Shown: piece after piece, positions 6,982-19,133 of the stretch
Numbering within the stretch: position 1 is the stretch's first letter
How the letters are laid out: every line of letters starts with the position of its first letter
From: Cyanidioschyzon merolae
Taxonomy: Eukaryota
Reading direction: 5' to 3' (one strand)
DNA: 64,000 nucleotides
Assembly (NCBI GenBank): GCA_000091205.1
Contig: AP006501.2
Program-made: the position numbers and the translations under genes
The notes under the pieces: generated by a model
Told to the model about the DNA's origin: nothing
Database searches by the model: none
The model's input: only the letters and a program-made list of their open reading frames with translations

Positions 6982-8463
6982 TCAGCACACACGAGATGAT
7001 GGTGCACTGCTTTTGGAAGGGCAAAGAACACAAGCAATGCGCTCGAATGCAACTTGTAGCGTTTGCGTATCCTCAACTGCCGAGAAGCAACATCTATACC
7101 ACCCGGGTTCAGGAGCATGGCAAACACGACCCGGATAGATCAACACTCGCGCTTCTCGAAAGAGTCGCTCAGCAAGTTCCAACTCCGCTTCCCAGGTCGC
7201 CTCGCGAAGAAATCTCTGCAAGCCAATCCATACGAAGAATCCAGCCTGGCTGGGATAGATGCGCACCTGCTCTGCCCCAAGACTGGTTTGAATCGCTTGA
7301 ACAGCCACCTGATACGCTTCCTCTAGTCGTCGTTGGTTTGCGACGAAAAACTTGTGCAACCATTGCTCGTCACTCAGCATTCGGCAAAGCACTGCCTGCG
7401 TATCCCGACTGGGCGACGAAAACAAACACGGTGCTCGAATCGCCTGCAACAGAGCCTGGTTCTCCGTAAAGAGAACCCCACATCGCATGCCACTCATACA
7501 GAGGTCCTTACTAAACGTCCATACGACATGCACATCGTTGCCGAGACCCTGGACGGCCAAAACGTCCGCTACGGAACGAAAACGCCCCGCATGGCTCTGG
7601 AAGACCGAGAGCGCGTACGCCTCGTCGCTCACCAGGTGCATGCCATGGGATCGACACCATTGAATGGAAAGCTCTAGTTCTTCTGTCGATAGAATATTGC
7701 CCGTTGGATTCCCGGGACTGTGCAGGAGCAACACTCGCGGTCGTTGCCCGCTCGCTCTACAGGTCCGGTCCGCAGTTTCAAGCGCATCCCTTGTCAGACG
7801 GTGGTGGTTATGGAGCGCTGTTTGTACAGGTACGGGTATGCACTTTGCACGGCAGCTCAGGTCAAAGTCAAATCCCGGATAATACGGTGCCGGAATCAAC
7901 ACGGCATCACCATCGTCACACAGGGCACTGAATACCAGGTCAAGTACAGCGCTTGCACCAACGGCACACAGGTAGTTATCGGGGTTGGCTGCACTTGCTG
8001 GGCCGCCTTTCGAAGCTGCAAATATATGCTCTCGAAAGAGTTGGCTAAGTGCCTTGCGAAAGCGTAACTCGCCGAACATGTAGTCGTACTGAAGGCACTC
8101 GTTGCGCGGCAATACGTCGCTGCGTTCCCGCTGAAACTGGGCTAAGACGGGTCCCGCACTGAGCGCGTTCTCGGCCACCAGCAGTGAGATATAACCATTA
8201 GGTTTTAATTGTGGATCGTATGCGTCCTGTTTCGCTGTAAAGGACCACTCAATCTGGCGTGGCGGTGCACGACTCGCAAGCGCCCTCCCCCGGTCTGAAA
8301 GCGTCTCTGCTGCGCTTTTCAGCACGCTACTCGTCTCTGGTTGTTGCATGCAGACACGTATACTTCGCTGTTGCTGCTGGGACGTAGCTGAACAGAGCAG
8401 CCGATCCCGACACTGAGCGCGAACGAACAAAGCTTCTCGGTAAACACCAGACTGGAGGAACAT
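6982..8463 (-). CDS. Class I/II PLP-dependent aminotransferase, ACC-synthase-like
   Basis: ATG-initiated 493-aa ORF. The PLP-lysine motif 'TFSKDLCMSGMRCGVL' matches ACC-synthase-type 'SLSKDxGxPGFRxG'. Other family blocks are 'NGYISLLVAENALS' and 'LLHSPGNPTGN'. Confidence 0.8.
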   Translation of the reverse strand: MFLQSGVYREALFVRAQCRDRLLCSATSQQQQRSIRVCMQQPETSSVLKSAAETLSDRGRALASRAPPRQIEWSFTAKQDAYDPQLKPNGYISLLVAENALSAGPVLAQFQRERSDVLPRNECLQYDYMFGELRFRKALSQLFREHIFAASKGGPASAANPDNYLCAVGASAVLDLVFSALCDDGDAVLIPAPYYPGFDFDLSCRAKCIPVPVQTALHNHHRLTRDALETADRTCRASGQRPRVLLLHSPGNPTGNILSTEELELSIQWCRSHGMHLVSDEAYALSVFQSHAGRFRSVADVLAVQGLGNDVHVVWTFSKDLCMSGMRCGVLFTENQALLQAIRAPCLFSSPSRDTQAVLCRMLSDEQWLHKFFVANQRRLEEAYQVAVQAIQTSLGAEQVRIYPSQAGFFVWIGLQRFLREATWEAELELAERLFREARVLIYPGRVCHAPEPGWYRCCFSAVEDTQTLQVAFERIACVLCPSKSSAPSSRVC

Positions 8464-8562: not shown

Positions 8563-9256
8563 GAACTTGGCGACTGAGACAAAGTCTTCAACGTAGAAGC
8601 CTCATGGTGCAAGGATCGGGTGTATAAAGGTACGAGATACTGCGAACTTGGCGACTGAGGCACAGTCTTCAACGTAGAAGCCTCATGGTGCAAGGATCGG
8701 GTGTATAGAGGTACGAGATACTGCGAACTTGGCGACTGAGGCACAGTCTTCAACGTAGAAGCCTCATGGTGCAAGGGTCGGGTGTATAGAGGTACGAGAT
8801 ACTGCGAACTTGGCGACTGAGGCACAGTCTTCAACGAAGAAGCCTCATGGTGCAAGGATCGGGTGTATAAAGGTACGAGATACTGCGAACTTGGCGACTG
8901 AGGCACAGTCTTCAACGAAGAAGCCTCATGGTGCAAGGATCGGGTGTATAAAGGTACGAGATACTGCGAACTTGGTGACTGAGACACAGTCTTCAACGAA
9001 GAAGCCTCATGGTGCAAGGATCGGGTGTATAAAGGTACGAGATACTGCGAACTTGGCGACTGAGACAAAGTCTTCAACGTAGAAGCCTCATGGTGCAAGG
9101 ATCGGGTGTATAGAGGTACGAGATACTGCGAACTTGGCGACTGAGGCACAGTCTTCAACGAAGAAGCCTCATGGTGCAAGGATCGGGTGTATAAAGGTAC
9201 GAGATACTGCGAACTTGGCGACTGAGACAAAGTCTTCAACGTAGAAGCCTCATGGT
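8563..9256. repeat. 81-bp minisatellite, 8 full units plus a 40-bp partial unit
   Basis: Units start at 8569, 8650, 8731, 8812, 8893, 8974, 9055, 9136 and 9217. The consensus is 'GGCGACTGAG(G/A)CA(C/A)AGTCTTCAACG(T/A)AGAAGCCTCATGGTGCAAGG(A/G)TCGGGTGTATA(A/G)AGGTACGAGATACTGCGAACTT'. The array lies between the 5' end of the aminotransferase gene and the 3' end of the permease gene. Confidence 0.95.
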
Positions 9257-9602: not shown

Positions 9603-10430
9603 TCAACTAGCACCAGATGTGTACGTTTCGCGCACAAGCCTCCAGGAGTTATGATCGAAAAACTTGCCGTACGTCAACAAAGCCAGTAAGGATGCAGAAA
9701 GCGTACTACCTGCTGTGATCATATAATACACAACGATTTGATAACGCGCTGCTGTGTCCGTGGAACCGTTACCGACAATCTGCCCCGTCATCATGCCTGG
9801 TAAAGAGACAAGGCCTACCGTCAGCATCGAGTTCACGACCGGAATCAGTGCCGAGCGCAAGGAGGCTCGAAGTGCCGGTGCGATCGCTTGTTTTGGACTG
9901 GCACCTATGCTGAGGAGTTCCTCGATCTCTTTCTCGTGCGAGGATACCTCGGACTGGAGTCGTTCGCCCAACAACGCTACTGTGTTCATGGCGTTCCCGA
10001 GAATCATACCGGAGAGCGGGATAAAGTAACGCGGCATCCAGAAAGGTTTCACTCCGATGACGGTCCAAGTTGTTTGCACGATCACGAAACCTGCACCACT
10101 GAGAAGCGAGACTAGCACGGCGACGAACATACCCGGTATTGGTCGGTGCATGCGCTGTGAAGCTGTCCAGGCAGCAACCAAAGTCATGATGCTTACTGCC
10201 AAGAACACAAGCAATGGTAGGTTTGCAGCGAAAATCCAGCGCAAGACGAGCCCTACGAGCAACAACTGGACTGCGGCACGAAGGGACGCCCAAACCATAT
10301 CCAGTTCGATGCCAATCTCAAACAGCCATATCGCCATAACTGACAGTAGCATGAAACCGTAAGCGACAGCAAGTTGACCAAGACTGACAGGCAGGGCGCC
10401 GGCCGTGTCGGCACTGCTCGTGGACTCCAT
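9603..10430 (-). CDS. fetB: FetB/YbbM (UPF0014; plant ALS3/STAR2-like) ABC-type permease
   Basis: The track start at 10454 is GTG and the first ATG is at 10430. The protein is polytopic, with the family block 'YFIPLSGMILGNAMNTVAL' and overall YbbM-like topology. Confidence 0.75.
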   Translation of the reverse strand: MESTSSADTAGALPVSLGQLAVAYGFMLLSVMAIWLFEIGIELDMVWASLRAAVQLLLVGLVLRWIFAANLPLLVFLAVSIMTLVAAWTASQRMHRPIPGMFVAVLVSLLSGAGFVIVQTTWTVIGVKPFWMPRYFIPLSGMILGNAMNTVALLGERLQSEVSSHEKEIEELLSIGASPKQAIAPALRASLRSALIPVVNSMLTVGLVSLPGMMTGQIVGNGSTDTAARYQIVVYYMITAGSTLSASLLALLTYGKFFDHNSWRLVRETYTSGAS

Positions 10431-10706
10431 GAATGGGCGACGGATGCAAAACACGAACGCTTCCGACCCCAGGTCTGAACAACGAAGTGAATGTCCAGGT
10501 CAGAGCGCGTTGACTGCCGCACGCCGTCGAACAAGGCAAGAATCCTCGACCAGGTACAAGTGCAGTCGTGCAGGCTCTCGTACGGCTTCTCAAGGCCCAG
10601 CAGCAGGAGCGCGCTGAGCTCTGGTGCTGTGCTCGTTCGTGCCGTGCGGCCTGCCTTCTCACCAAGACACCTTCGACTGTGAATGCTCGCTTCCCGATCT
10701 GCGGCT

Positions 10707-11996
10707 CTATTTTGTTGCTCCCAATGACTCCCCAGTCAAAAGCCGATGAATGCTGGCCGCTGTATCGGCGGTACCGAGCAGCGCACGCGCGTCACCGCGT
10801 AAGAACAGCTCCCCGTCCCGCACAAGAATGAGCTGGCCGTCGGTAACCTCCGAGAGTCTGTGCGTCACTATGAGTATTGTGGCCCGGATGCGTTCTTTCC
10901 AGTCCGATAAACGTTGCAATACTTGAGCCGCTGTTGCTGCGTCCAGACTTGAAGTGACCTCGTCCAGCAGTAGGATTCGTGGTTGCTGCAAAAGCACTCG
11001 CGTGAGGCCGAGGCGAGCTCGCTCACCCCCTGACAAGGCGGCTAGCGGTCGATCCAGAATCGTTCGCGATAAGCCAGCTATATGCAGTGCTTCCGGTAGT
11101 CGCTGTTCAAGCTCTGTCCGCGATACAACTCCCAAACGAACGAGCGTCTCGAGCGCCGACTTTGCTGGTTCCTCCGTGTTCGCGCTCGAGCGTTGTCGGC
11201 GTTTGCCGAGGACCAGCTCCCAAAGCGTTTCTCGCGTTACAAGTCGGCGGAGTGCCTCCAGCAAACCAGGCCTCCTATGTGCCAAACACGGCAATGCAGG
11301 TTGCTGGCTCAGAAAACCTACTAGTTTGCCCCGTAACTCGCCTGGAGGGTACGCTGGCACTGGTGTGCCCCACAGCCGGACTTGACCACCTGAAGGCTCC
11401 TCTAAGCGGTTCACCAGTCGAAGAAGTCGAGACTTGCCAGCTCCTGACGGGCCGATGATAAACACCGTCTCTCCGTCGCGTACTTCGAAACAGATATTCC
11501 GAAGTATGGGTCGAGTCGTCCCCGCCGCCTGGGTGCTCGCAGACAACGTCACTCCTTCGAAAGCGATTGCCACCTCCCGTGTTCCACTTGGATAGTTCTC
11601 GACGAATGCGCCAGAGTCTCGCGTCACTGGGCGAATAGGATCGATGTTCTCGTGGTGCCTCTCTGTCGCGGAGCCGTACTCGAGGTCCGTTGCCAGCGAA
11701 GCGGCTGCCGTCGAAAGCACAGCGTCCGCGTCTTCCCTGGTTGACTCCTGATTGCTCACCGAAAGAGTATCTGTGCCAGCTTTTGGACTTAAGCGGTTGC
11801 TGAATGACATGAAAGGGGGAAAATATCCCCCGGGAACAGATATACCTGAAACGGCTGCTGCAACTCCAGCGCAGAAGTCAAGCGCTGCAGAGACGGCCCT
11901 GGTGGCAGGCCTCGACGCCTGAAGCGTTTGCTCAGGTTTCGCTCTGAGCGTATTCGGAACGGAACCTGAGACGTTTCCCTGGGTGCTGATCACCAT
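10707..11996 (-). CDS. fetA: ABC transporter ATP-binding protein (FetA/YbbL, STAR1-like) with a ~170-aa N-terminal extension
   Basis: The track start at 12050 is GTG and the first ATG is at 11996. It has Walker A 'GPSGAGKS', signature 'LSGGERARLGL', Walker B 'ILLLDEVTSSLD' and an H-loop 'VTHRL'. Confidence 0.85.
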   Translation of the reverse strand: MVISTQGNVSGSVPNTLRAKPEQTLQASRPATRAVSAALDFCAGVAAAVSGISVPGGYFPPFMSFSNRLSPKAGTDTLSVSNQESTREDADAVLSTAAASLATDLEYGSATERHHENIDPIRPVTRDSGAFVENYPSGTREVAIAFEGVTLSASTQAAGTTRPILRNICFEVRDGETVFIIGPSGAGKSRLLRLVNRLEEPSGGQVRLWGTPVPAYPPGELRGKLVGFLSQQPALPCLAHRRPGLLEALRRLVTRETLWELVLGKRRQRSSANTEEPAKSALETLVRLGVVSRTELEQRLPEALHIAGLSRTILDRPLAALSGGERARLGLTRVLLQQPRILLLDEVTSSLDAATAAQVLQRLSDWKERIRATILIVTHRLSEVTDGQLILVRDGELFLRGDARALLGTADTAASIHRLLTGESLGATK

Positions 11997-12503
11997 CACA
12001 CTTCTTGAAGCATCTGGTTGGAATCGTTGATTGCATAGGATCAGAAACACACTGGAAGGCGCCTGGCTCGCGTTCGACGACCCCTAGCGCAGGGTAGAAG
12101 CTGCGATTTCACGCCGCTTCGTGCTTGCTCGTTCAAGGGCGTTTCTCGTATACCGTGTTCAAGTCCATAACTAAACCATCTGGTGACTTTGGACAACGGA
12201 GAACGCTGAGAGCGCTGGGCACTACCCAAAACGCCTCAGAGTCTGGAGCTGGCGCTCTCCGAACCAACCGCAGCAGCGACCTGGTGGTAGCCTGGAACGT
12301 GTCGGTTCACTGGAGGCTCTCCTGACGAGGCGTCCAGCACTGCCCGTTCTCTGTCGTTCTGTTTCTTTCTGTAGGCCTGTAGGAGTACGCAGGAACATCT
12401 GCGTTGTCTCACTTTGGATTTCCGGTTTCCTCGAGAGGAGACGTTGGCAGCCGCTGGACGAAACTTGTAAGCCGACCCGCAGCAGTGGGTTACGCTTCCG
12501 AGC

Positions 12504-15500
12504 ATGCCCTCCAGGGGTGCGCGTTCGAAGAAGCCCGCAAAGAAGACCGCCTCAGCTGAGGAGGCAGCACAACGACTGCCAGAGCATCTCGCGGCAGGCA
12601 AGTTCACCTCACTGGCCGACATCACAAGTATCGTGCTGGGTGCTCGCTCGTGGCAGTCCGAGGCAGAGGCCGAGACGAGGCCCCTCACGACTACCGCGTC
12701 TACTGCAGAGCTTCAAAATTGGGATGAACACGCTGCGCTGGTTGCCCAACGACTCTTAAAACGCGATGAAAGTACAAAACTACGAGCGTTGCAGGAGCTC
12801 AGCACCCTCTTGCAGGCACTGGAACAAGCTTCCTCGGAAAGAATCGCAGACCAAGCAGCCTACGGGGCCCAGTACGGCGCTTTTCTCGGAAACTTTGCCA
12901 CTGCATTCGTGAAACTGACACTGGATCCGAGTGTACGCGTTCGAGCAGAAGCCGTCGCGCTGGCGGGGCTTGTCGTTCGTCTTTACGGAAAACGGTCAAT
13001 AGCGCTCCTGCCGGGGATGCTTCCGGCATGGGTTGGGTTGCTGGGCGATCCCTCGGCACAGGTCGCTGAAGCTGCAGCTCGTAGTTTCCAGGACGCGTTT
13101 CCCACTGAGGTGAAACGTCGACGAGCGCTGTTGTTGGTACCGCATGCACTGATCCACCACGCAACCGCGCAGGTTCAGAGCAGTCTAGCGGGAAACGTGC
13201 CAGAGACGTTGCGTCAATCCGCAGACAAGGCCGAAATGCCCCTTCTCCACGCGCTGGTGTGCGTGGCGTCCACCGCGGAGGCTTTGGCAACGACACTAGC
13301 GACAAAGACAACCTTGTCGCCAGCAGACGACTCGGAACTGGTTGCATTTCTGGTCCACTGGCTCCAGCACTGGGTATCGGAGGAAGGCGTGCAGACGCTT
13401 GCGGTACCGCTTTTCCGCCGCTACCGGCAATCGCTCCGCGTCCATGAGGCCTTCTGGCGACTAGCCATTATTTCAGTGGACCTTTTCGGAGAGCTTCGGC
13501 AGACCAGAGACGAGCACCAGGGGCATAGCTTGATCGCTGCATTGGCAAACGCTTGTCCAGACTGGGAAAGCAAGGCGTCGGACGGTTTTTCCTATCTCGT
13601 TTCACGACTCGCTTGGGATGAGCTGCACGCTTCCTGCCAAGAACAGGTCTGGATCCTCCTCCATCGCTATGTTGTGCGGATTGAGCCTTCCAGCAGCAGC
13701 CTTGCACGATCGATCTCTGCAAAGACGCTCACAAGCTGGCTTCTCGGCGAGTCGATAGCAGGGGGCCGGCGTCAGGCCTCTGCAGCCGAACGTATCCAGT
13801 CTGGTCGGGTTTTCCGGGGGCTGCTACCCTTCTTGCAAGCGCTACGAATCAAGTGGCTGACCAGCGACGCTGTGCGTTCCGATCCAGTCGAGAGCGCTTC
13901 CCGTCATCATTGGCTCGAGTCGTTCGAGGGTATGCTGCTCGATGAGCTCACCACTGCCTTGCTCTGGCGAGCGCCTAAAACAAAGTTTCCTCCAGCGCTT
14001 GTGGGGAGCGCTTACCTGGACTGGTGGCAAGCAGCGCTGGTCGCTTTCCTGGAGAGTGCGCTCTGGGTCCAGCAGCTATCCTCGAGACGAGAGCGCAGCG
14101 ATGATAGGACTGCTCTGCGCGCTCGATGCCGCGCTGCACTACAGCGGTACCTTCTTGCAGCGGAGGCGTTTCAGCGTGCACCTGAAGCGTCGCAATCCGT
14201 GGTGCAATTCGGTGGTAGACCAGCCGATGCATCATTGCTTCATGAACGCTTTTTCGATGTGCTTTTCTATGCGAGCGTGGACGCTTGTCGAAGCGACTTG
14301 GATGCAACGCGCTCCAACTGGCAAATCGTTGGTGAGGAGCTCGCCGCGGGGCTCGTCGTCATCGTCGTCATCGAACGAGCACCTGCCTGGTATGCGAAGG
14401 CGGTGGTCGCTGCTTGCGAACGTGCCGTGCAGGGAACCTCGTTCGCGACGCTCGAGTCAGACCAGCAGCCCCGGTGGTCACTTCTAGGCCTCGATCCTGG
14501 CGTCATTCGTACCTGGAGTGTAGAAATTATGGGAGGTGCGTTCTGCTGGGCACTGAATCGTTTCCGTCGACGAAAGATTGGCAACGGAAACGCACAACAT
14601 GACGATAATCACCAGCAGGTACATGGTACTCCAGCGGAAGCAGAGGTTGCAACCACGCTGCTCCTGTTGGCATGGAGTCAGCGCGCCCCGGCTTCGATGC
14701 TGGAACGTGCTTTGCAGTATCCAGATCCGATTCAGGGCCGCCATCGACTCAACGACTTTTTCCACGACGCTGTGTCGCTGCTGGAGCATCCATCAGCGGA
14801 AAACGAGCATGACGATGACGATGACGACAACGAGGAGGAGGCGGTGGCGGTGGCAGCGCTCCCTGCTGCTTACAGTCACCAGCTCGTAGCGGTGCTGGGT
14901 GCACTGGCTGCATGCAGTCACTCCTCTGAGGCGCTGAGCGGTCCATCGAGCGTCTTGAACGCGCGTTTAGAGGAGTGTCCTGGCGCGGGTCGCTGGCTCA
15001 TCGAACTTGCTCAAGCAGCACGTATCCGAGCAGCTTCAATAGAGCAAGGTGTTCCAGCTGGTCTCTGGACAGCGACGGTGTTTCCCCGTCACCTGGCTGA
15101 CCAAGTGGAGCACCTGCAGTGCTACTGCGACCAACTGGACCCCGCCCGCTACTCCTATTACCGCCGTTCGGAGACAGACGCTTGGCCTTCCGTTGGGCTC
15201 CTGCTGGAATACGCCGCCTGGCCCGAGGCCTGGCTCTGGTCAACGTCCACTGACTGGTCTACACTGAGGAGCAGCATGGATGCCAGCGTGTGTCGGGCGC
15301 TGCGTCTCGGACTCTGGGACTGGCCCCAACTGGCCTCCTTTCAGCAGGGTGTTCATTCAGCAGCTGCTCCATGGACCGCAGAAACACGAGCTTGGCTGTA
15401 CGTGAGAGCGCTCCTGGCATTAGAGCAGCACCAGAGCCAAGAAGCAAGCGACGGGCATGTGTTTGCGGACGTCCGACCGTCGGCAGCGCTGGAGCGTGAA

Positions 15501-18500
15501 ACCCTGGAAAGAGTCGTGCTCGACGCACTCGCGTGGCTCCTTGAGGATATGGAACGCGTTCTGCTCGCAGAGTCGTGTGAAACGCAAGCTCCGGACATGC
15601 TCGAGGCTGTTCAACGCTTCCAGCGCGTGCTGCTAGAGCTCGCCGCCACCTCGAAACGCCCCTGGCAAGCTCTCCTGTACGACATATTGTACAAGTGCTG
15701 GGTATCGGATGCAGAGGACTCGAAGGCAATAGCAGCACAGCCTGGAGAGCGCGTGATAGAACCAGCATGGCGACCATTGCAAAGACTAGAGGAGCAACAA
15801 CGACAACAACGCTGGCGTTGTTCGCTGCTCGAGTCGCTGACACCCTCGCTGGACGATGCAGCAAGTCCGCTTGATGCTACGTTGTGGCACCTCTACCTGC
15901 AGTTTCCATGGACGCGTTCCTGGGCAACAGCACGATTTATCGGCTGGCTGCAGCGAACGGATGCTGCGACTGCTGCGTCCGCACTCGACGTGGCGGCAGC
16001 GGTACTTGCGCGCCTCCTGGACCCCGAAGCGAGCACTGCAGCCTGCTGCGACACGATCGTAACCGAGTTGGCAAAAGCCCCGCTGTACGCACCAGCGACA
16101 CCGACAGCGTTTCAGGTGCCGCTCGAGCAAAGCGCTGAGCGTCAACCGACGATGCTCATGAGACTGCTGATATGGTCGTCACTGGTACGAGAGCGTTTCT
16201 GGATACGTCTCCAGACGGATGCTGCGTATTTTGGACGAAGCGTCACCGCGGCCTCTTTCACACGATGCACGATGGCTGCTCTGGAAACCGGTCCGGTTAC
16301 CGGCCTGCAGGCATCTGGAGCCGTGGGAGAGTTTGCGTTGGAGCTCCTTCGGTATGCGGCAGCGAGTCTGGCGCAAACGCTGCCCGTATGGGTCCAGAGC
16401 GTTCTGAATGACACCTCAGCTGAGCGAATGCGCAGCGCTACCGGGCTGCAGCACGAGCCGTCTGTCCAAGTGGCCCCACAGGATGTACCGAAAACACTGT
16501 GTGCTTCTATGGAAATTCTCGGGCATGCGGCTGCGATTCCCGCCTCCTACGAACATCGTGCGGATTTGTTGACGTACCTGCGTTCCGCACTGGAACTGCT
16601 CATTGAGGTGCCGTTCACGAACCTGATCACAAGCCTCGAGCGAGCGCCACAGCAAACGAGTGAGGAGTTTCATCGAGGCTCCTCATTCGTTGGCAAACAT
16701 GCAACGCCGGACGCCAACACGACAAGGCCAGCAGCATCGGCAACGAGCGTGCGTCGCGTTTCGGACGCTCCATCGACACCGTCGTCATCGTCGAGCGCAG
16801 CGGAGGACTCGAATCGCCAGGTACTCGCGGTCCTGTTTGAACGGCTCGTGCGTCCGAGTCTGGACGTTTTCGCTACCGACCTGGGCGAAGAACACTGGAC
16901 CTGGATCGGCGAGACTGCTACGCAGGCGCTGGTGACCTCGCTGGGCTGGCCAGTGTACGCGGCAGCGCTTCGGTGTCTGTACGCATGGCATGTGCGGCTC
17001 GTAGAGCGTGCCTCTTCGACCCTGTTATCGGAACAGATGGTCAGCAGTATTGGACAGGCCCTCTGGATGACTTGTTATCGATTGGCAGAGGCGTATCGTG
17101 ACTCGCTCGTCACCGAGGCGCCATGTTCACCGGTTGCGGAGCTGAACCTACCCGTTCAAGATGCGCTGGGCTATTTGATTTGCGTTTTCAGACCTGAACT
17201 TGAGCGACTGGCGCTTCGCAGCGAGGATTCCGCACCCCAGATGATGACCGCGTTACCGTGCTGGCGCGAAGCTCGTGACCGCTGGGTAACGACGCGTTTT
17301 GGTGTCAAGTGTGAGTCGTTGCTTTCATCGATGCTGGGCCGCTTCTGGTGTCTCACCTGGCTTCCGTATCTCGTTGCAAGCAAAAGCACCGCTGTCCGCA
17401 GTGCCGTCATGCAGTTGCTGGGCACCCTGTGGGATGCGCTGGAAGCCTGGCTCGCGACGTCGACACTGGAGGGTGCACAGGCGTCCCTGGGTACCGGGCA
17501 CGCAGGTACAGGTGCCTCTCCTGCGGATACACGTCCAGGCTCGATTCGTTTCGAGTCCGATCAGCGTGGAGCGGCCACAGCCCTGGGCAGACGACCTGCA
17601 GAGCCCGAGCCGATGCCCTGTAGCAGCACCAGCGCTACATACGCTACCGAGACAACGCCACTGGAATACTCTGCGGATCGACGGGGCACCCAGCTGGACG
17701 GCAGCGTCGAGCATCACGACCCGTTACGCACGGAGGCATCGGAGCTCTCCGTCGCCGTCAGCGACTTGGGCATTGCAGAGAATACCGTGCATTTGGAGGC
17801 ACTCAAGGGATTGGCAACGCTCCACGATGCCCTGATTCAGAGCTGCAGTGAGGCGCTGTTTGCCCTGACGGCGAGGTTTCCGTCGCTGGACCCGACACCA
17901 GAGGCCGCGTCATGGGAACCTCTGCAGACCTATTTTTGCGCTTGGCTGGTGCTGCTTCGGCTCCAGGTCACGGGCTCCTATCCAGAAGCGTCGCTGGTAA
18001 CACCGTTGGGGTCGCGGTTGCCGAACACGTTGCGAGAAGGTGCGCTTTGGACGCTTCTAGACGGACTCGGGCGTTGCTGGATCCGAGCGGCAGCTACGAT
18101 AACGACGCGAACACCCGAAAGCAGTCACTCCACGAGCGATGCAGAGGCTCAATGCTTCCGAGAGCAACTGGAAATGCTTCTGGCTGGTCTCACCGAGCAA
18201 CTGGTGCTCGCTACCTCGGATCCGCAGTGGCTGGCGAGGGAGATCTTCTGGGAGCCAACAGACTGGCGACCAGCGGCTCTCGGAGCCCGCCTCCTCTTCC
18301 TGACGCTACTCGTGCAACCGCTTCTTGCACAACGCTGGTTTACCGATCATGTTGCGGATCGCTCGCTTCTTCAGCCGCTGGAGCTGTTGAGCCGCACGCT
18401 GCTCACTGGACCGTTGATTGCCCGCGAACTCGAGGCTATTCGGCAGTATGCCGCGCATGTGCACCAGACCCAGCACCGGGAGAACGGCGAAACCGTTCCC

Positions 18501-19133
18501 AATGCATCCCCTTCCCATACGGGTGTGTTATCCGTTCAGGGTAGTCTTGCAGCACGAGAGATTCTGGTTCGGTACCACTTTGAAGAGGTCCAATTACCCG
18601 TGTGTCTCCGACTGGCCGATACGCATCCGTGGCGAGCGCCGGAGCTTGTGCTTGCGCCCGCTGAACGCTCCGTAGTCTCGTTGGCGGGCATCGAACGTGA
18701 AACACGCGCTCGATCAGAGCTCGAAGCTCGCTACCGAAGACTCTTTCTCCATATGACCAGAATTTTACAACACGGAGTGGATCGGCACTCTGCCGACGCC
18801 GGTACCCTACTGCTACAACTGGGCGCATCGGCAACGTCCTCGTCGACATCGACGACATCGACGCTTGGGACGGCGTCCTGTGTGCCTCGTCAGTACTTTG
18901 CACCGAGTGCCCTCGCCAGTGCGGTGGTGTACTGGCATCAGCGTTTGGTTTCCCTATTGCGTGACGCACCCGAGTGTCCGATCTGTTATCAGGTGCTGCA
19001 TTCACGAACAGGTCAGGTTTCGCGTGTGCGCTGTCCGACCTGTCGGTATCGATTCCATGCAGCTTGTCTGTATCGGTGGTTCAGTAGTGCTGCGCACGGT
19101 GCCACGTGTCCGTTGTGTCGGTCACCGTTCTAA
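12504..19133 (+). CDS. LTN1: Listerin (LTN1/Rkr1) ribosome-quality-control E3 ubiquitin ligase
   Basis: 2209-aa uninterrupted ATG ORF with HEAT-like repeats throughout. The extreme C-terminal RING at 18972-19130 reads 'ECPICYQVLHSRTGQVSRVRCPTCRYRFHAACLYRWFSSAAHGATCPLCRSPF', which is typical of listerin. Confidence 0.85.
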   Translation: MPSRGARSKKPAKKTASAEEAAQRLPEHLAAGKFTSLADITSIVLGARSWQSEAEAETRPLTTTASTAELQNWDEHAALVAQRLLKRDESTKLRALQELSTLLQALEQASSERIADQAAYGAQYGAFLGNFATAFVKLTLDPSVRVRAEAVALAGLVVRLYGKRSIALLPGMLPAWVGLLGDPSAQVAEAAARSFQDAFPTEVKRRRALLLVPHALIHHATAQVQSSLAGNVPETLRQSADKAEMPLLHALVCVASTAEALATTLATKTTLSPADDSELVAFLVHWLQHWVSEEGVQTLAVPLFRRYRQSLRVHEAFWRLAIISVDLFGELRQTRDEHQGHSLIAALANACPDWESKASDGFSYLVSRLAWDELHASCQEQVWILLHRYVVRIEPSSSSLARSISAKTLTSWLLGESIAGGRRQASAAERIQSGRVFRGLLPFLQALRIKWLTSDAVRSDPVESASRHHWLESFEGMLLDELTTALLWRAPKTKFPPALVGSAYLDWWQAALVAFLESALWVQQLSSRRERSDDRTALRARCRAALQRYLLAAEAFQRAPEASQSVVQFGGRPADASLLHERFFDVLFYASVDACRSDLDATRSNWQIVGEELAAGLVVIVVIERAPAWYAKAVVAACERAVQGTSFATLESDQQPRWSLLGLDPGVIRTWSVEIMGGAFCWALNRFRRRKIGNGNAQHDDNHQQVHGTPAEAEVATTLLLLAWSQRAPASMLERALQYPDPIQGRHRLNDFFHDAVSLLEHPSAENEHDDDDDDNEEEAVAVAALPAAYSHQLVAVLGALAACSHSSEALSGPSSVLNARLEECPGAGRWLIELAQAARIRAASIEQGVPAGLWTATVFPRHLADQVEHLQCYCDQLDPARYSYYRRSETDAWPSVGLLLEYAAWPEAWLWSTSTDWSTLRSSMDASVCRALRLGLWDWPQLASFQQGVHSAAAPWTAETRAWLYVRALLALEQHQSQEASDGHVFADVRPSAALERETLERVVLDALAWLLEDMERVLLAESCETQAPDMLEAVQRFQRVLLELAATSKRPWQALLYDILYKCWVSDAEDSKAIAAQPGERVIEPAWRPLQRLEEQQRQQRWRCSLLESLTPSLDDAASPLDATLWHLYLQFPWTRSWATARFIGWLQRTDAATAASALDVAAAVLARLLDPEASTAACCDTIVTELAKAPLYAPATPTAFQVPLEQSAERQPTMLMRLLIWSSLVRERFWIRLQTDAAYFGRSVTAASFTRCTMAALETGPVTGLQASGAVGEFALELLRYAAASLAQTLPVWVQSVLNDTSAERMRSATGLQHEPSVQVAPQDVPKTLCASMEILGHAAAIPASYEHRADLLTYLRSALELLIEVPFTNLITSLERAPQQTSEEFHRGSSFVGKHATPDANTTRPAASATSVRRVSDAPSTPSSSSSAAEDSNRQVLAVLFERLVRPSLDVFATDLGEEHWTWIGETATQALVTSLGWPVYAAALRCLYAWHVRLVERASSTLLSEQMVSSIGQALWMTCYRLAEAYRDSLVTEAPCSPVAELNLPVQDALGYLICVFRPELERLALRSEDSAPQMMTALPCWREARDRWVTTRFGVKCESLLSSMLGRFWCLTWLPYLVASKSTAVRSAVMQLLGTLWDALEAWLATSTLEGAQASLGTGHAGTGASPADTRPGSIRFESDQRGAATALGRRPAEPEPMPCSSTSATYATETTPLEYSADRRGTQLDGSVEHHDPLRTEASELSVAVSDLGIAENTVHLEALKGLATLHDALIQSCSEALFALTARFPSLDPTPEAASWEPLQTYFCAWLVLLRLQVTGSYPEASLVTPLGSRLPNTLREGALWTLLDGLGRCWIRAAATITTRTPESSHSTSDAEAQCFREQLEMLLAGLTEQLVLATSDPQWLAREIFWEPTDWRPAALGARLLFLTLLVQPLLAQRWFTDHVADRSLLQPLELLSRTLLTGPLIARELEAIRQYAAHVHQTQHRENGETVPNASPSHTGVLSVQGSLAAREILVRYHFEEVQLPVCLRLADTHPWRAPELVLAPAERSVVSLAGIERETRARSELEARYRRLFLHMTRILQHGVDRHSADAGTLLLQLGASATSSSTSTTSTLGTASCVPRQYFAPSALASAVVYWHQRLVSLLRDAPECPICYQVLHSRTGQVSRVRCPTCRYRFHAACLYRWFSSAAHGATCPLCRSPF

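Follow-up and report, generated by a model that had tools for sequence, protein, structure and literature searches.

A bacterial-type FetA-FetB gene pair in the nuclear genome of the red alga Cyanidioschyzon merolae with an ATG-free first cistron and spacer: a candidate leaky-scanning bicistron

We have described here an unusual pair of adjacent genes in a 64,000-nucleotide stretch of DNA (the window) from the red alga Cyanidioschyzon merolae, both of which the existing annotation lists as subunits of an "unknown ABC transporter". The minus strand carries both, the ATPase gene (ORF1) first, and exactly 276 bp separate its stop codon from the start codon of the permease gene (ORF2). A first-pass annotation had given this strand, order and gap, which we reproduce exactly, and it had also placed a UPF0014/FetB permease at 9603-10430(-) and an ABC ATPase domain within the ORF at 10707-11996(-), identities that our searches bear out. 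Pfam PF03649 matches ORF2 (257.4 bits; cut-off 22.6) over 240 of the 242 profile positions, alignment with bacterial FetB relatives gives 71 invariant columns with the invariant FetB residues kept, and an AF2 model (pLDDT 82.5) has eight helices. ORF1 scores 80.4 bits with Pfam ABC_tran and all five catalytic motifs are intact (Walker A GPSGAGKS, Q-loop SQQP, signature LSGGE, Walker B ILLLDE, and H-loop VTHR). The names FetA and FetB are valid at the family level only, as judged from profile scores. ORF2 does not reach the NCBIfam equivalog for the iron efflux permease (TIGR00245; 162.5 bits, cut-off 410), nor does ORF1 reach the FetA equivalog (NF007601; 106.7 bits against 292), which ranks third after CydD and LssB, and because both proteins miss these cut-offs iron cannot be assumed as the substrate. 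A PDB sequence search with FetB gave no match and Foldseek against the PDB gave nothing under E = 0.3, so the transporter type is not assignable from solved structures. Literature searches with the accession number, with "unknown ABC transporter", and for leaky scanning in Cyanidiophyceae returned no earlier description of the locus.

Table 1. Coordinates of the features at the ATPase-permease locus, numbered from the first base of the window.
Feature	Coordinates	Strand	Basis
ORF2, UPF0014/FetB-type permease, 275 aa	9603..10430	(-)	Pfam PF03649 (1.5e-76), alignment, ATG counts, AF2 model
ORF1, FetA-like ABC ATPase, 367 aa	10707..11810	(-)	Pfam ABC_tran, motifs, dN/dS, ATG counts
ATG-free interval delimited exactly by the two start codons, 1379 nt	10431..11809	(-)	ATG scan in all three frames
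Inter-ORF spacer, ATG-free, 276 nt	10431..10706	(-)	ATG scan, folding, alignment
Start context of ORF1, TTC ATG T (T at -3, T at +4)	11805..11816	(-)	Four-lineage comparison
Putative 5' leader of the bicistron, ATG-free; codons 1-62 of the ATPase (429 aa) in the existing annotation	11811..11995	(-)	Strain indel, start codons of relatives
N-terminal extension of the ATPase over bacterial FetA, 79 aa, acidic, poorly conserved	11574..11810	(-)	Alignment
Insertion in the ATPase helical subdomain, ~43 aa, Cyanidiales-specific, absent in bacterial FetA	11166..11294	(-)	Alignment
Divergent intergenic region, common with a Listerin-like gene (12504-19133, +); presumed promoter region of the bicistron	11811..12503	(.)	Synteny with relatives

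The position of the ATPase start codon matters for everything that follows. Both the existing annotation (429 aa) and the first-pass annotation begin the gene at 11996, which is the closest ATG upstream of 11810. Natural C. merolae strains differ at 11823 by an indel of 1 bp, which would fall within the first 62 codons of the longer gene, and in Cyanidiococcus and a third relative (GCA_041825655) the ATPase begins at a methionine aligned with the ATG at 11810 (MSF.../MSI...). For these two reasons the start at 11996 is probably wrong, and 11810, giving a protein of 367 aa, is most likely the true start. The N-terminal extension, previously put at ~170 aa and thought to be a possible targeting sequence, shrinks accordingly to 79 aa (48 aa in Cyanidium). 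Its composition is net acidic (13 D+E and 7 K+R) and it is variable, and the permease has no N-terminal extension at all; a targeting peptide is disfavored on these grounds.

The pair and its neighborhood are conserved in Cyanidiococcus, GCA_041825655, and Cyanidium, with inter-ORF spacers of 214, 180, and 54 bp in these relatives, the shortest being that of Cyanidium. All four lineages share a eukaryotic gene order that runs from Listerin, divergent from the ATPase, through FetB and an aminotransferase to ETF-alpha and an M48 peptidase further along. The Listerin, aminotransferase, and ETF-alpha flanks, present in the four lineages and in 13 C. merolae strain contigs, speak for a locus integrated in the host chromosome and against contamination. 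Between the lineages synonymous sites are saturated (pS 0.65-0.84), and the dN/dS of ORF1 relative to its counterparts is 0.15-0.21; ORF1 is under purifying selection and is therefore translated. The suggestion that the cassette is relatively recent does not fit these observations, since the arrangement is older than the split between Cyanidium and Cyanidioschyzon and synonymous sites have had time to saturate.

Both proteins have their closest relatives among bacteria. FetB is 47-57% identical to the members of one bacterial clade (P0005-P0022) and 36-43% identical to the other sampled prokaryotes, cyanobacteria included; in a 50%-identity representative library only one FetB match exceeds 182 bits, and it belongs to this clade (242 bits). 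A neighbor-joining tree groups the red algal permeases with the clade (bootstrap 94), and the corresponding ATPase tree, in which three bacterial partners were sampled, groups the red algal ATPases with the FetA partners from the same clade (bootstrap 87); Cyanidiales were the only algae in the two trees, and ALS3 represented the plant subunits. In the closest bacteria the gene order is that of C. merolae, fetA overlapping fetB by 1-4 bp, and ATPase directly upstream of permease on the same strand is the arrangement in 75 of the 83 prokaryotic loci fetched, again usually with a 1-4 bp overlap. A scan of GTDB genomes with generic motifs gave, among the matches listed, a best FetB identity of 43%, and the clade was absent from them. 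As to the identity of the donor clade, its position in the tree beside Polyangia and one neighboring gene matching the sce4755 family hint at a possible link to Myxococcota.

The congruent sister clades fit one horizontal transfer of a bacterial operon, a single event being suggested because both proteins are sister to one bacterial clade with identical gene order. The earlier proposal of a prokaryote-derived cassette in operon order is thereby strengthened, and neither gene was placed with linked eukaryotic paralogues. An alternative is that the pair has a vertical or endosymbiotic origin, going back to the cyanobacterial ancestor of plastids or to a gene pair of early archaeplastids, and is orthologous to STAR1/STAR2, with adjacency lost in plants. 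Plants do have homologues of both subunits (we retrieved ALS3 sequences, and STAR1 is known from the literature), and fetAB-like operons are common in cyanobacteria. However, plant ALS3 is only 34% identical to the Cyanidiales FetB and ranks below more than 100 bacterial clusters, a clade of red algae plus plants appears in one of 100 neighbor-joining bootstraps, and cyanobacteria fall apart from the Cyanidiales pair in both trees. Beyond the lineages compared above, no red alga, Galdieria included, and no green alga is among the 120 best FetB matches. We consider this origin highly improbable, and at this level of comparison the pair is unrelated to plant ALS3/STAR2. Cyanidiales are known recipients of horizontally transferred genes (Rossoni et al. 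2019), and the main text of that study makes no mention of an ABC transporter among its 96 HGT orthogroups.

The newly observed property of the locus is that ATG is missing in every frame between the start codon of the ATPase and the start codon of FetB. No other ATG-free stretch in the window, whichever the strand, is as long as these 1379 nt, the next being 694, 591, and 536 nt. ATG is the sole trinucleotide missing from the interval, with 18.2 occurrences expected. The frequency of its reverse complement, CAT, is normal (14-18 occurrences). Beyond its start codon ORF1 has no ATG in any frame and hence no internal methionine, whereas other genes of the window have 9.9-16.9 ATG per kb and ORF2 has a normal content (14 ATG, 13 methionines). 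The interval has no ATG in any of the 13 C. merolae strain contigs, nor in Cyanidiococcus (1302 nt) or GCA_041825655 (1298 nt), and it has one or two in Cyanidium against 12.5 expected. At each locus the longest ATG-free stretch is this interval, beginning exactly at the ORF1 AUG. Absence of methionine from the protein does not account for the pattern, as codon shuffles that keep the protein Met-free predict four to five out-of-frame ATGs (P = 0.0005-0.003 per lineage). Because synonymous sites are saturated between lineages, the absence of ATG is taken to be maintained independently.

The spacer taken by itself is not diagnostic. The spacers of the relatives are likewise ATG-free, with a seemingly significant probability of about 0.03-0.09 per lineage, but we dropped this as separate evidence because the 276 nt upstream are ATG-free in 7 of the 19 window ORFs. 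Folding showed no significant RNA structure in the spacer relative to shuffles (z = -0.14), and no conserved spacer element was found between genera, the sequences being unalignable with a mean column identity of 45%.

These properties bear on whether the two genes might be ordinary monocistronic units, with a compact FetB promoter in the spacer or in the 3' end of the ATPase gene, the adjacency merely inherited and the lack of ATGs due to chance or some other cause. The growth of the spacer from a bacterial overlap to 54-276 bp is what insertion of eukaryotic signals would produce, and, as noted, it is frequent in this genome for upstream regions to lack ATG over 276 nt or more. However, an internal promoter cannot account for an ATG-free zone that spans the 1.1-kb ORF1, begins exactly at its start codon, and extends to three frames in three lineages at saturated divergence; moreover, the 54-bp spacer of Cyanidium is too small for a terminator plus a promoter, and the spacers share no element. 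We therefore regard separate transcription as unlikely.

A possible second component of the signal is the context of the ORF1 start codon. The T residues at -3 and +4 of the ATPase AUG are common to all four lineages, and T at -3 occurs in two of the 16 window genes from which we judged the C. merolae consensus. By the general eukaryotic rule, which is not specific to C. merolae, the context would be a weak one. That of the FetB AUG is not strong throughout, being TTC AUG G in C. merolae and CTC AUG U in Cyanidium. For green algal bicistrons with leaky scanning and for Drosophila stoned/Snapin, the published criteria are a weak ORF1 Kozak context and depletion of start codons before ORF2 (PMC11291117), and the ATG-free interval together with the ORF1 context has the appearance of this hallmark signature. 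The option of a dicistronic transcript, raised in the first-pass annotation, thus gains strong support at the sequence level, with the ATPase ORF and spacer ATG-free in three genera and the presumably weak ORF1 context present in four lineages.

A bicistronic mRNA could also yield FetB by termination and reinitiation, or from an IRES in the spacer. Reinitiation after an ORF of 367 codons is inefficient, and neither mechanism selects against AUGs within ORF1, although ATG-free spacers would suit reinitiation equally well. Stop and start codons that overlap or abut, as in translational coupling, are absent both in C. merolae (spacer 276 bp) and in its relatives (54-214 bp). The spacer also speaks against both mechanisms, since it is no more structured than its shuffles, is unconserved, and varies from 54 to 276 nt. 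Cyanidiales do have polycistronic transcripts, Iso-Seq having revealed hundreds, mostly bicistronic, in Cyanidium and Cyanidiococcus (PMC9812998, Suppl. Note 8); that study, which could not settle on a translation mechanism, predicted no IRES in them (Cho et al.; PMC9812998). We judge both routes to FetB to be quite improbable, more so than separate transcription.

Assembled public reads are of no help in choosing among these models. The short Logan contigs L101-L105 all begin at 10623, which might be read as a FetB transcription start, but SNPs lie at 10624 and 10628 and the ends are de Bruijn bubble breaks; as assembly breaks beside a SNP they say nothing on where transcription starts. The 3' contig ends near 9550 and 9228 adjoin a SNP or an 81-bp repeat and were rejected as RNA ends, and a 2917-bp contig of the same run series (L106) is equally uninformative as RNA evidence.

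We favor a model in which the last shared ancestor of Cyanidium, Cyanidiococcus, and Cyanidioschyzon acquired, in one transfer into its nuclear genome, a bacterial operon of a fetA-like and a fetB-like gene that has stayed intact since. Rather than splitting into two independent eukaryotic genes, the operon would be expressed as one capped mRNA with its 5' end in the 185 nt preceding 11810. A share of the scanning 43S complexes would initiate at the weak-context ATPase AUG (TTC AUG U), and the remainder would pass through 1.38 kb cleared of AUGs by selection and initiate at the FetB AUG. The products would assemble as an ABC exporter of the FetAB/STAR1-STAR2 type, probably with two ATPase and two permease subunits; this stoichiometry, like the substrate and the cellular location of the transporter, we infer. 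The explanation as a whole, from single operon transfer through one mRNA and leaky scanning to the exporter, we hold to be likely and advance with fair confidence. That the captured operon has become a eukaryotic bicistron, a single nuclear mRNA from which leaky scanning gives ATPase and permease in coupled stoichiometry, with the purge of AUG and methionine from a 367-codon gene kept through saturating divergence, we consider probable.

Several known systems resemble parts of this model. The E. coli fetA-fetB (ybbL-ybbM) operon and other prokaryotic UPF0014 operons have the same two families, the ATPase-then-permease order, the catalytic motifs, and the invariant FetB residues, but there the stop and start codons overlap, whereas the Cyanidiales pair is nuclear, sits in eukaryotic synteny, and has a spacer of 54-276 bp; its ATPase also adds to bacterial FetA the acidic extension and a 43-aa insertion. 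Plant STAR1 and STAR2 (ALS3) are likewise a nuclear-encoded UPF0014 permease with a separate ATPase, but in Arabidopsis and rice the genes are generally described as unlinked and monocistronic, and the Cyanidiales permease, lying in a separate clade, is not orthologous to ALS3. The literature links the plant proteins with tolerance of aluminium on acid substrates, a suggestive ecological parallel for algae of acid springs, and by analogy a role in tolerance of iron or aluminium stress in these acid-hot-spring algae is plausible. The bicistrons of Chlamydomonas, Auxenochlorella, and Drosophila stoned/Snapin share with the C. merolae locus a short leader free of AUG and the depletion of AUGs ahead of ORF2, and probably also the weak context of the ORF1 start (PMC11291117). 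The C. merolae case differs in that it is found in a red alga, where the single transcript is predicted from sequence, its ORF1 is a full-length 367-codon enzyme wholly free of AUG and methionine, and its two cistrons, which would encode subunits of one complex, derive from a bacterial operon. We also note, as a counterpoint, that an ORF1 of this length is far longer than typical leaky-scanning ORF1s.

The polycistrons of Cyanidiophyceae (Cho et al. 2023, PMC9812998) come from the same organisms and are mostly bicistronic, with a few co-transcribed genes functionally related. Their evidence is transcriptomic, whereas that at the C. merolae locus is evolutionary, namely the AUG purge. The names CDCA06G1821/1822, FetB, and UPF0014 do not occur in those of the Cho et al. 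supplements that were searched, and the locus is unnamed in the searched portion of the text. Identical modules are coupled in another way in stramenopiles (Seminavis, Epipyxis), where UPF0014 and ABC_tran are fused in one gene with the permease first, whereas in Cyanidiales they are two cistrons. Yeasts of the Wickerhamiella/Starmerella group reportedly acquired a siderophore operon from bacteria and kept it together, a further case of a bacterial multi-gene cluster moved into a eukaryotic nucleus and maintained as a unit.

If the model is correct, leaky scanning to the second cistron would let an operon stay functional in a nucleus without a second promoter or a gene fusion, and so would offer a way for an operon to persist as such once it has moved into a eukaryote. 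It would also provide a first mechanistic handle on the translation of red algal polycistrons, and the evolution of a whole methionine-free ABC ATPase would illustrate how strong such selection can be. An ATG-free ORF1 plus spacer between two start codons could then serve as a genome-only test separating functional bicistrons from read-through among the hundreds reported in Cyanidiophyceae, and C. merolae, in which homologous recombination works, allows the model to be tested directly. The same features suggest rules for designing cassettes that express two genes in red algae, and the annotated 429-aa ATPase gets a probable new start codon. For the algae themselves, the acquired exporter, of a type associated with metal stress, is a candidate adaptation to life in acidic, metal-rich springs.

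We have examined here an ATPase-permease gene pair of Cyanidioschyzon merolae that lies in a eukaryotic window with few introns and 52-61% GC. The first-pass annotation placed the ATPase gene and the UPF0014 permease gene side by side on one strand, ATPase first, with a 276-bp gap, and the ORFs, Pfam match and coordinates agree with this. The permease (FetB) is identical to BAM82966.1 ('unknown ABC transporter permease subunit') by exact-sequence look-up, and the ATPase falls into one cluster with BAM82967.1 ('unknown ABC transporter ATP-binding subunit'), so that public annotation already shows the two genes as neighbours. Both proteins miss the NCBIfam equivalog cut-offs for FetB and FetA, and 'FetA/FetB' is therefore a label at family level only; a solved structure related to FetB turned up in neither the sequence search nor Foldseek. 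The region from FetB to the aminotransferase gene contains an 81-bp tandem repeat, an open frame encoding 27-aa repeats, at which several assemblies break; its copy number differs between C. merolae strains, the FetB-aminotransferase distance varying by multiples of 81 bp (contigs L006-L014).

Features of the gene pair and its surroundings
Feature	Position	Strand	Remarks
UPF0014/FetB-family permease, full length	9603-10430	-	Pfam PF03649, 257 bits
ORF with ABC ATPase domain, annotated extent	10707-11996	-	all catalytic motifs present
Class I/II aminotransferase gene, flanking pair	6982-8463
Listerin-like RING E3 ligase gene, flanking pair	12504-19133		2209 aa
81-bp tandem repeat	8563-9256		8.6 copies, 96% matches

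Spacers, and ATGs between the ATPase and FetB start codons (sense strand, any frame)
Lineage	Locus	Spacer (bp)	Interval (nt)	ATG observed	ATG expected
C. merolae	window	276	1379	0	~18
Cyanidiococcus yangmingshanensis	L001	214	1302	0	~18
Assembly GCA_041825655	L002	180	1298	0	~20
Cyanidium caldarium	L005, L004	54-55	1089	1 (in frame)	12.5
Cyanidium ENA relative			~1090	2	12.4

Gene order and neighbourhood are kept in four lineages (divergent Listerin-like gene, ATPase, FetB, aminotransferase and, further on, ETF-alpha and an M48 peptidase), and the synteny of the aminotransferase and Listerin-like genes with the pair extends from Cyanidium to Cyanidioschyzon. Synonymous sites are saturated between the lineages (pS 0.65-0.84) and dN/dS is low (0.15-0.21 for the ATPase, ~0.05 for FetB where estimable), and both genes are therefore old, translated and constrained. 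We also note a 575-aa EukProt gene model from a Cyanidium-like alga (P0125) that joins the ATPase to a frame-shifted reading of the neighbouring FetB, an annotation artefact produced by the 54-bp spacer.

Screening of the spacer for upstream ATGs revealed a depletion that runs through the whole ATPase gene. No other ATG-free run in the 64-kb window, on either strand, is as long as 10431-11809(-), the runners-up being 694, 591 and 536 nt, and the homologous interval likewise ranks first in L001, L002 and L005. ATG is the sole trinucleotide absent from the interval, and the reverse complement CAT is present 14-18 times. Twelve other window genes have 9.9-16.9 ATGs per kb, and FetB has 14 ATGs. 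Internal Met is missing from the ATPases of all three Cyanidioschyzon-type lineages, and the alignment shows it in the three ATPase partners sampled from the close bacterial clade. Codon-order shuffles of the Met-free protein predict 4.4-4.9 out-of-frame ATGs (P(0) = 0.0005-0.003 per lineage), synonymous resampling of ORF1, the ATPase frame, gives P(0 ATG) = 0.0025-0.01, and Markov-1 simulations yield means of 6-13. ATG is likewise missing from each of the 13 C. merolae strain contigs although the CDS has 10 SNPs, and with synonymous sites saturated between genera, the lack of ATG must be actively maintained. The second-longest such run in the window is the entire 694-nt divergent intergenic region (11810-12503, + strand, in the Listerin sense); it is borderline (P ~0.08 after correction for ~1800 intervals) and may therefore be no more than a long leader.

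In all four lineages the ORF1 AUG is flanked by T at both -3 and +4 (TTC/TTG/TTT/TGC ATG T), T at -3 being found in only two of 16 other window genes. At the FetB start, two lineages read GTC ATG G, C. merolae TTC ATG G and Cyanidium CTC ATG T, and the nearest ATG upstream of ORF1 is 68-186 nt away. The spacers are not alignable across genera, and the predicted fold of the spacer RNA is no more stable than that of shuffles (z = -0.14). Short Logan contigs show apparent 5' ends, but these are SNP-bubble artefacts (SNPs at 10624 and 10628) and were rejected as transcript starts.

Most economically read, the transferred operon would still be expressed as a single mRNA. This mRNA would carry both ORFs, and part of the ribosomes would pass over the ATPase AUG, with its apparently weak context, and scan on through 1.38 kb of RNA lacking AUG before translating FetB. 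FetB could alternatively be expressed from an independent promoter, or be translated by reinitiation or via an IRES, but none of these would select against AUGs in all ORF1 frames. Published criteria for green-algal leaky-scanning bicistrons are a weak ORF1 context and start-codon depletion before ORF2, and both also occur in Drosophila stoned/Snapin (PMC11291117). Iso-Seq identified 334-470 transcripts, mostly bicistronic, in Cyanidiococcus and Cyanidium; these had no predicted IRES, and according to the authors neither leaky scanning nor reinitiation could be demonstrated (PMC9812998, Suppl. Note 8). The dicistronic transcript, initially raised as one possibility, thus gains strong sequence evidence from the AUG-free ORF1 and spacer and the apparently weak ORF1 context; this evidence appears to be previously unreported, a literature search having found no paper describing the locus. 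The single transcript and its translation mechanism, like stoichiometry, substrate and location, are what we infer.

The public ATPase model (BAM82967.1, 429 aa) probably begins too far upstream, as implied by a 1-bp deletion at 11823, within its first 62 codons, in five of 12 other C. merolae strain contigs; the indel is polymorphic among natural strains, and in those carrying the deletion gene callers report a 367-aa product. In Cyanidiococcus and in a third relative the ATPase begins (MSFTDSS... and MSIDNN..., respectively) at a Met aligned with the 11810 ATG (MSFSNRL...), and on both grounds the gene most likely spans 10707-11810 (367 aa). The gene first placed at 11996-10707 thus stands with its start probably at 11810, and its supposed ~170-aa N-terminal extension shrinks to 79 aa beyond bacterial FetA (48 aa in Cyanidium). 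The proposed targeting role is not supported by the sequences, the extension being net acidic (D+E 13 vs K+R 7) and weakly conserved, and the permease having no extension. All Cyanidiales ATPases share a ~43-aa insertion in the helical subdomain.

The closest FetB matches outside Cyanidiales are a clade of metagenomic and MAG proteins (P0005-P0022; 47-57% identity), other sampled prokaryotes including cyanobacteria reaching 31-43% among the matches listed. Among 1.84 billion representatives clustered at 50% identity, the best FetB match is a member of this clade (242 bits; next 182 bits). The trees are neighbour-joining; algae are represented in them by Cyanidiales alone, and plants by ALS3 in the FetB tree. 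For FetB (96 taxa), the Cyanidiales form one clade (bootstrap 100) whose sister is the close clade (94), with a Polyangia group next and cyanobacteria elsewhere; for the ATPase (57 taxa), they group with three partners of the close clade (87). In three genomes of that clade (L096-L098) the ABC ATPase gene overlaps the fetB start by 1-4 bp. Congruent placement and matching donor gene order support one operon transfer before the Cyanidium/Cyanidioschyzon split; the prokaryote-derived cassette suggested earlier is thus supported, as an ancient transfer and not a 'relatively recent' one. An L097 neighbour gene matching the Sorangium-named sce4755 family, together with the tree, hints weakly at a Myxococcota-like donor. 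L096-L098 share a divergent sigma-70 gene, a PAE-family gene and two unknown ORFs directly 5' of fetA-fetB, the latter two without counterpart in the algae. Galdieria and any other alga are absent from the best 120 FetB matches, and the main text of Rossoni et al. 2019 names no ABC transporter among its HGT orthogroups.

Plant ALS3, retrieved with an Arabidopsis query that matches the A. lyrata entry at 94% identity, is only 34% identical to algal FetB, and a red plus plant clade appears in 1/100 replicates; these data support the view that the algal pair is not orthologous to the plant genes. Unlike the two algal genes, UPF0014-ABC ATPase fusions in other eukaryotes (permease then ATPase, 650-720 aa; P0499 from Seminavis robusta, P0504 from Epipyxis, and P0490) couple both subunits in another way, and a fungal protein (P0384, Coemansia) has two UPF0014 stretches.

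By analogy with FetAB in iron export and STAR1/STAR2 in aluminium tolerance, a metal-stress role of the pair in these acid-spring algae is plausible. The ATPase-FetB locus would join two known kinds, the retention of a horizontally transferred operon and the leaky-scanning bicistron.
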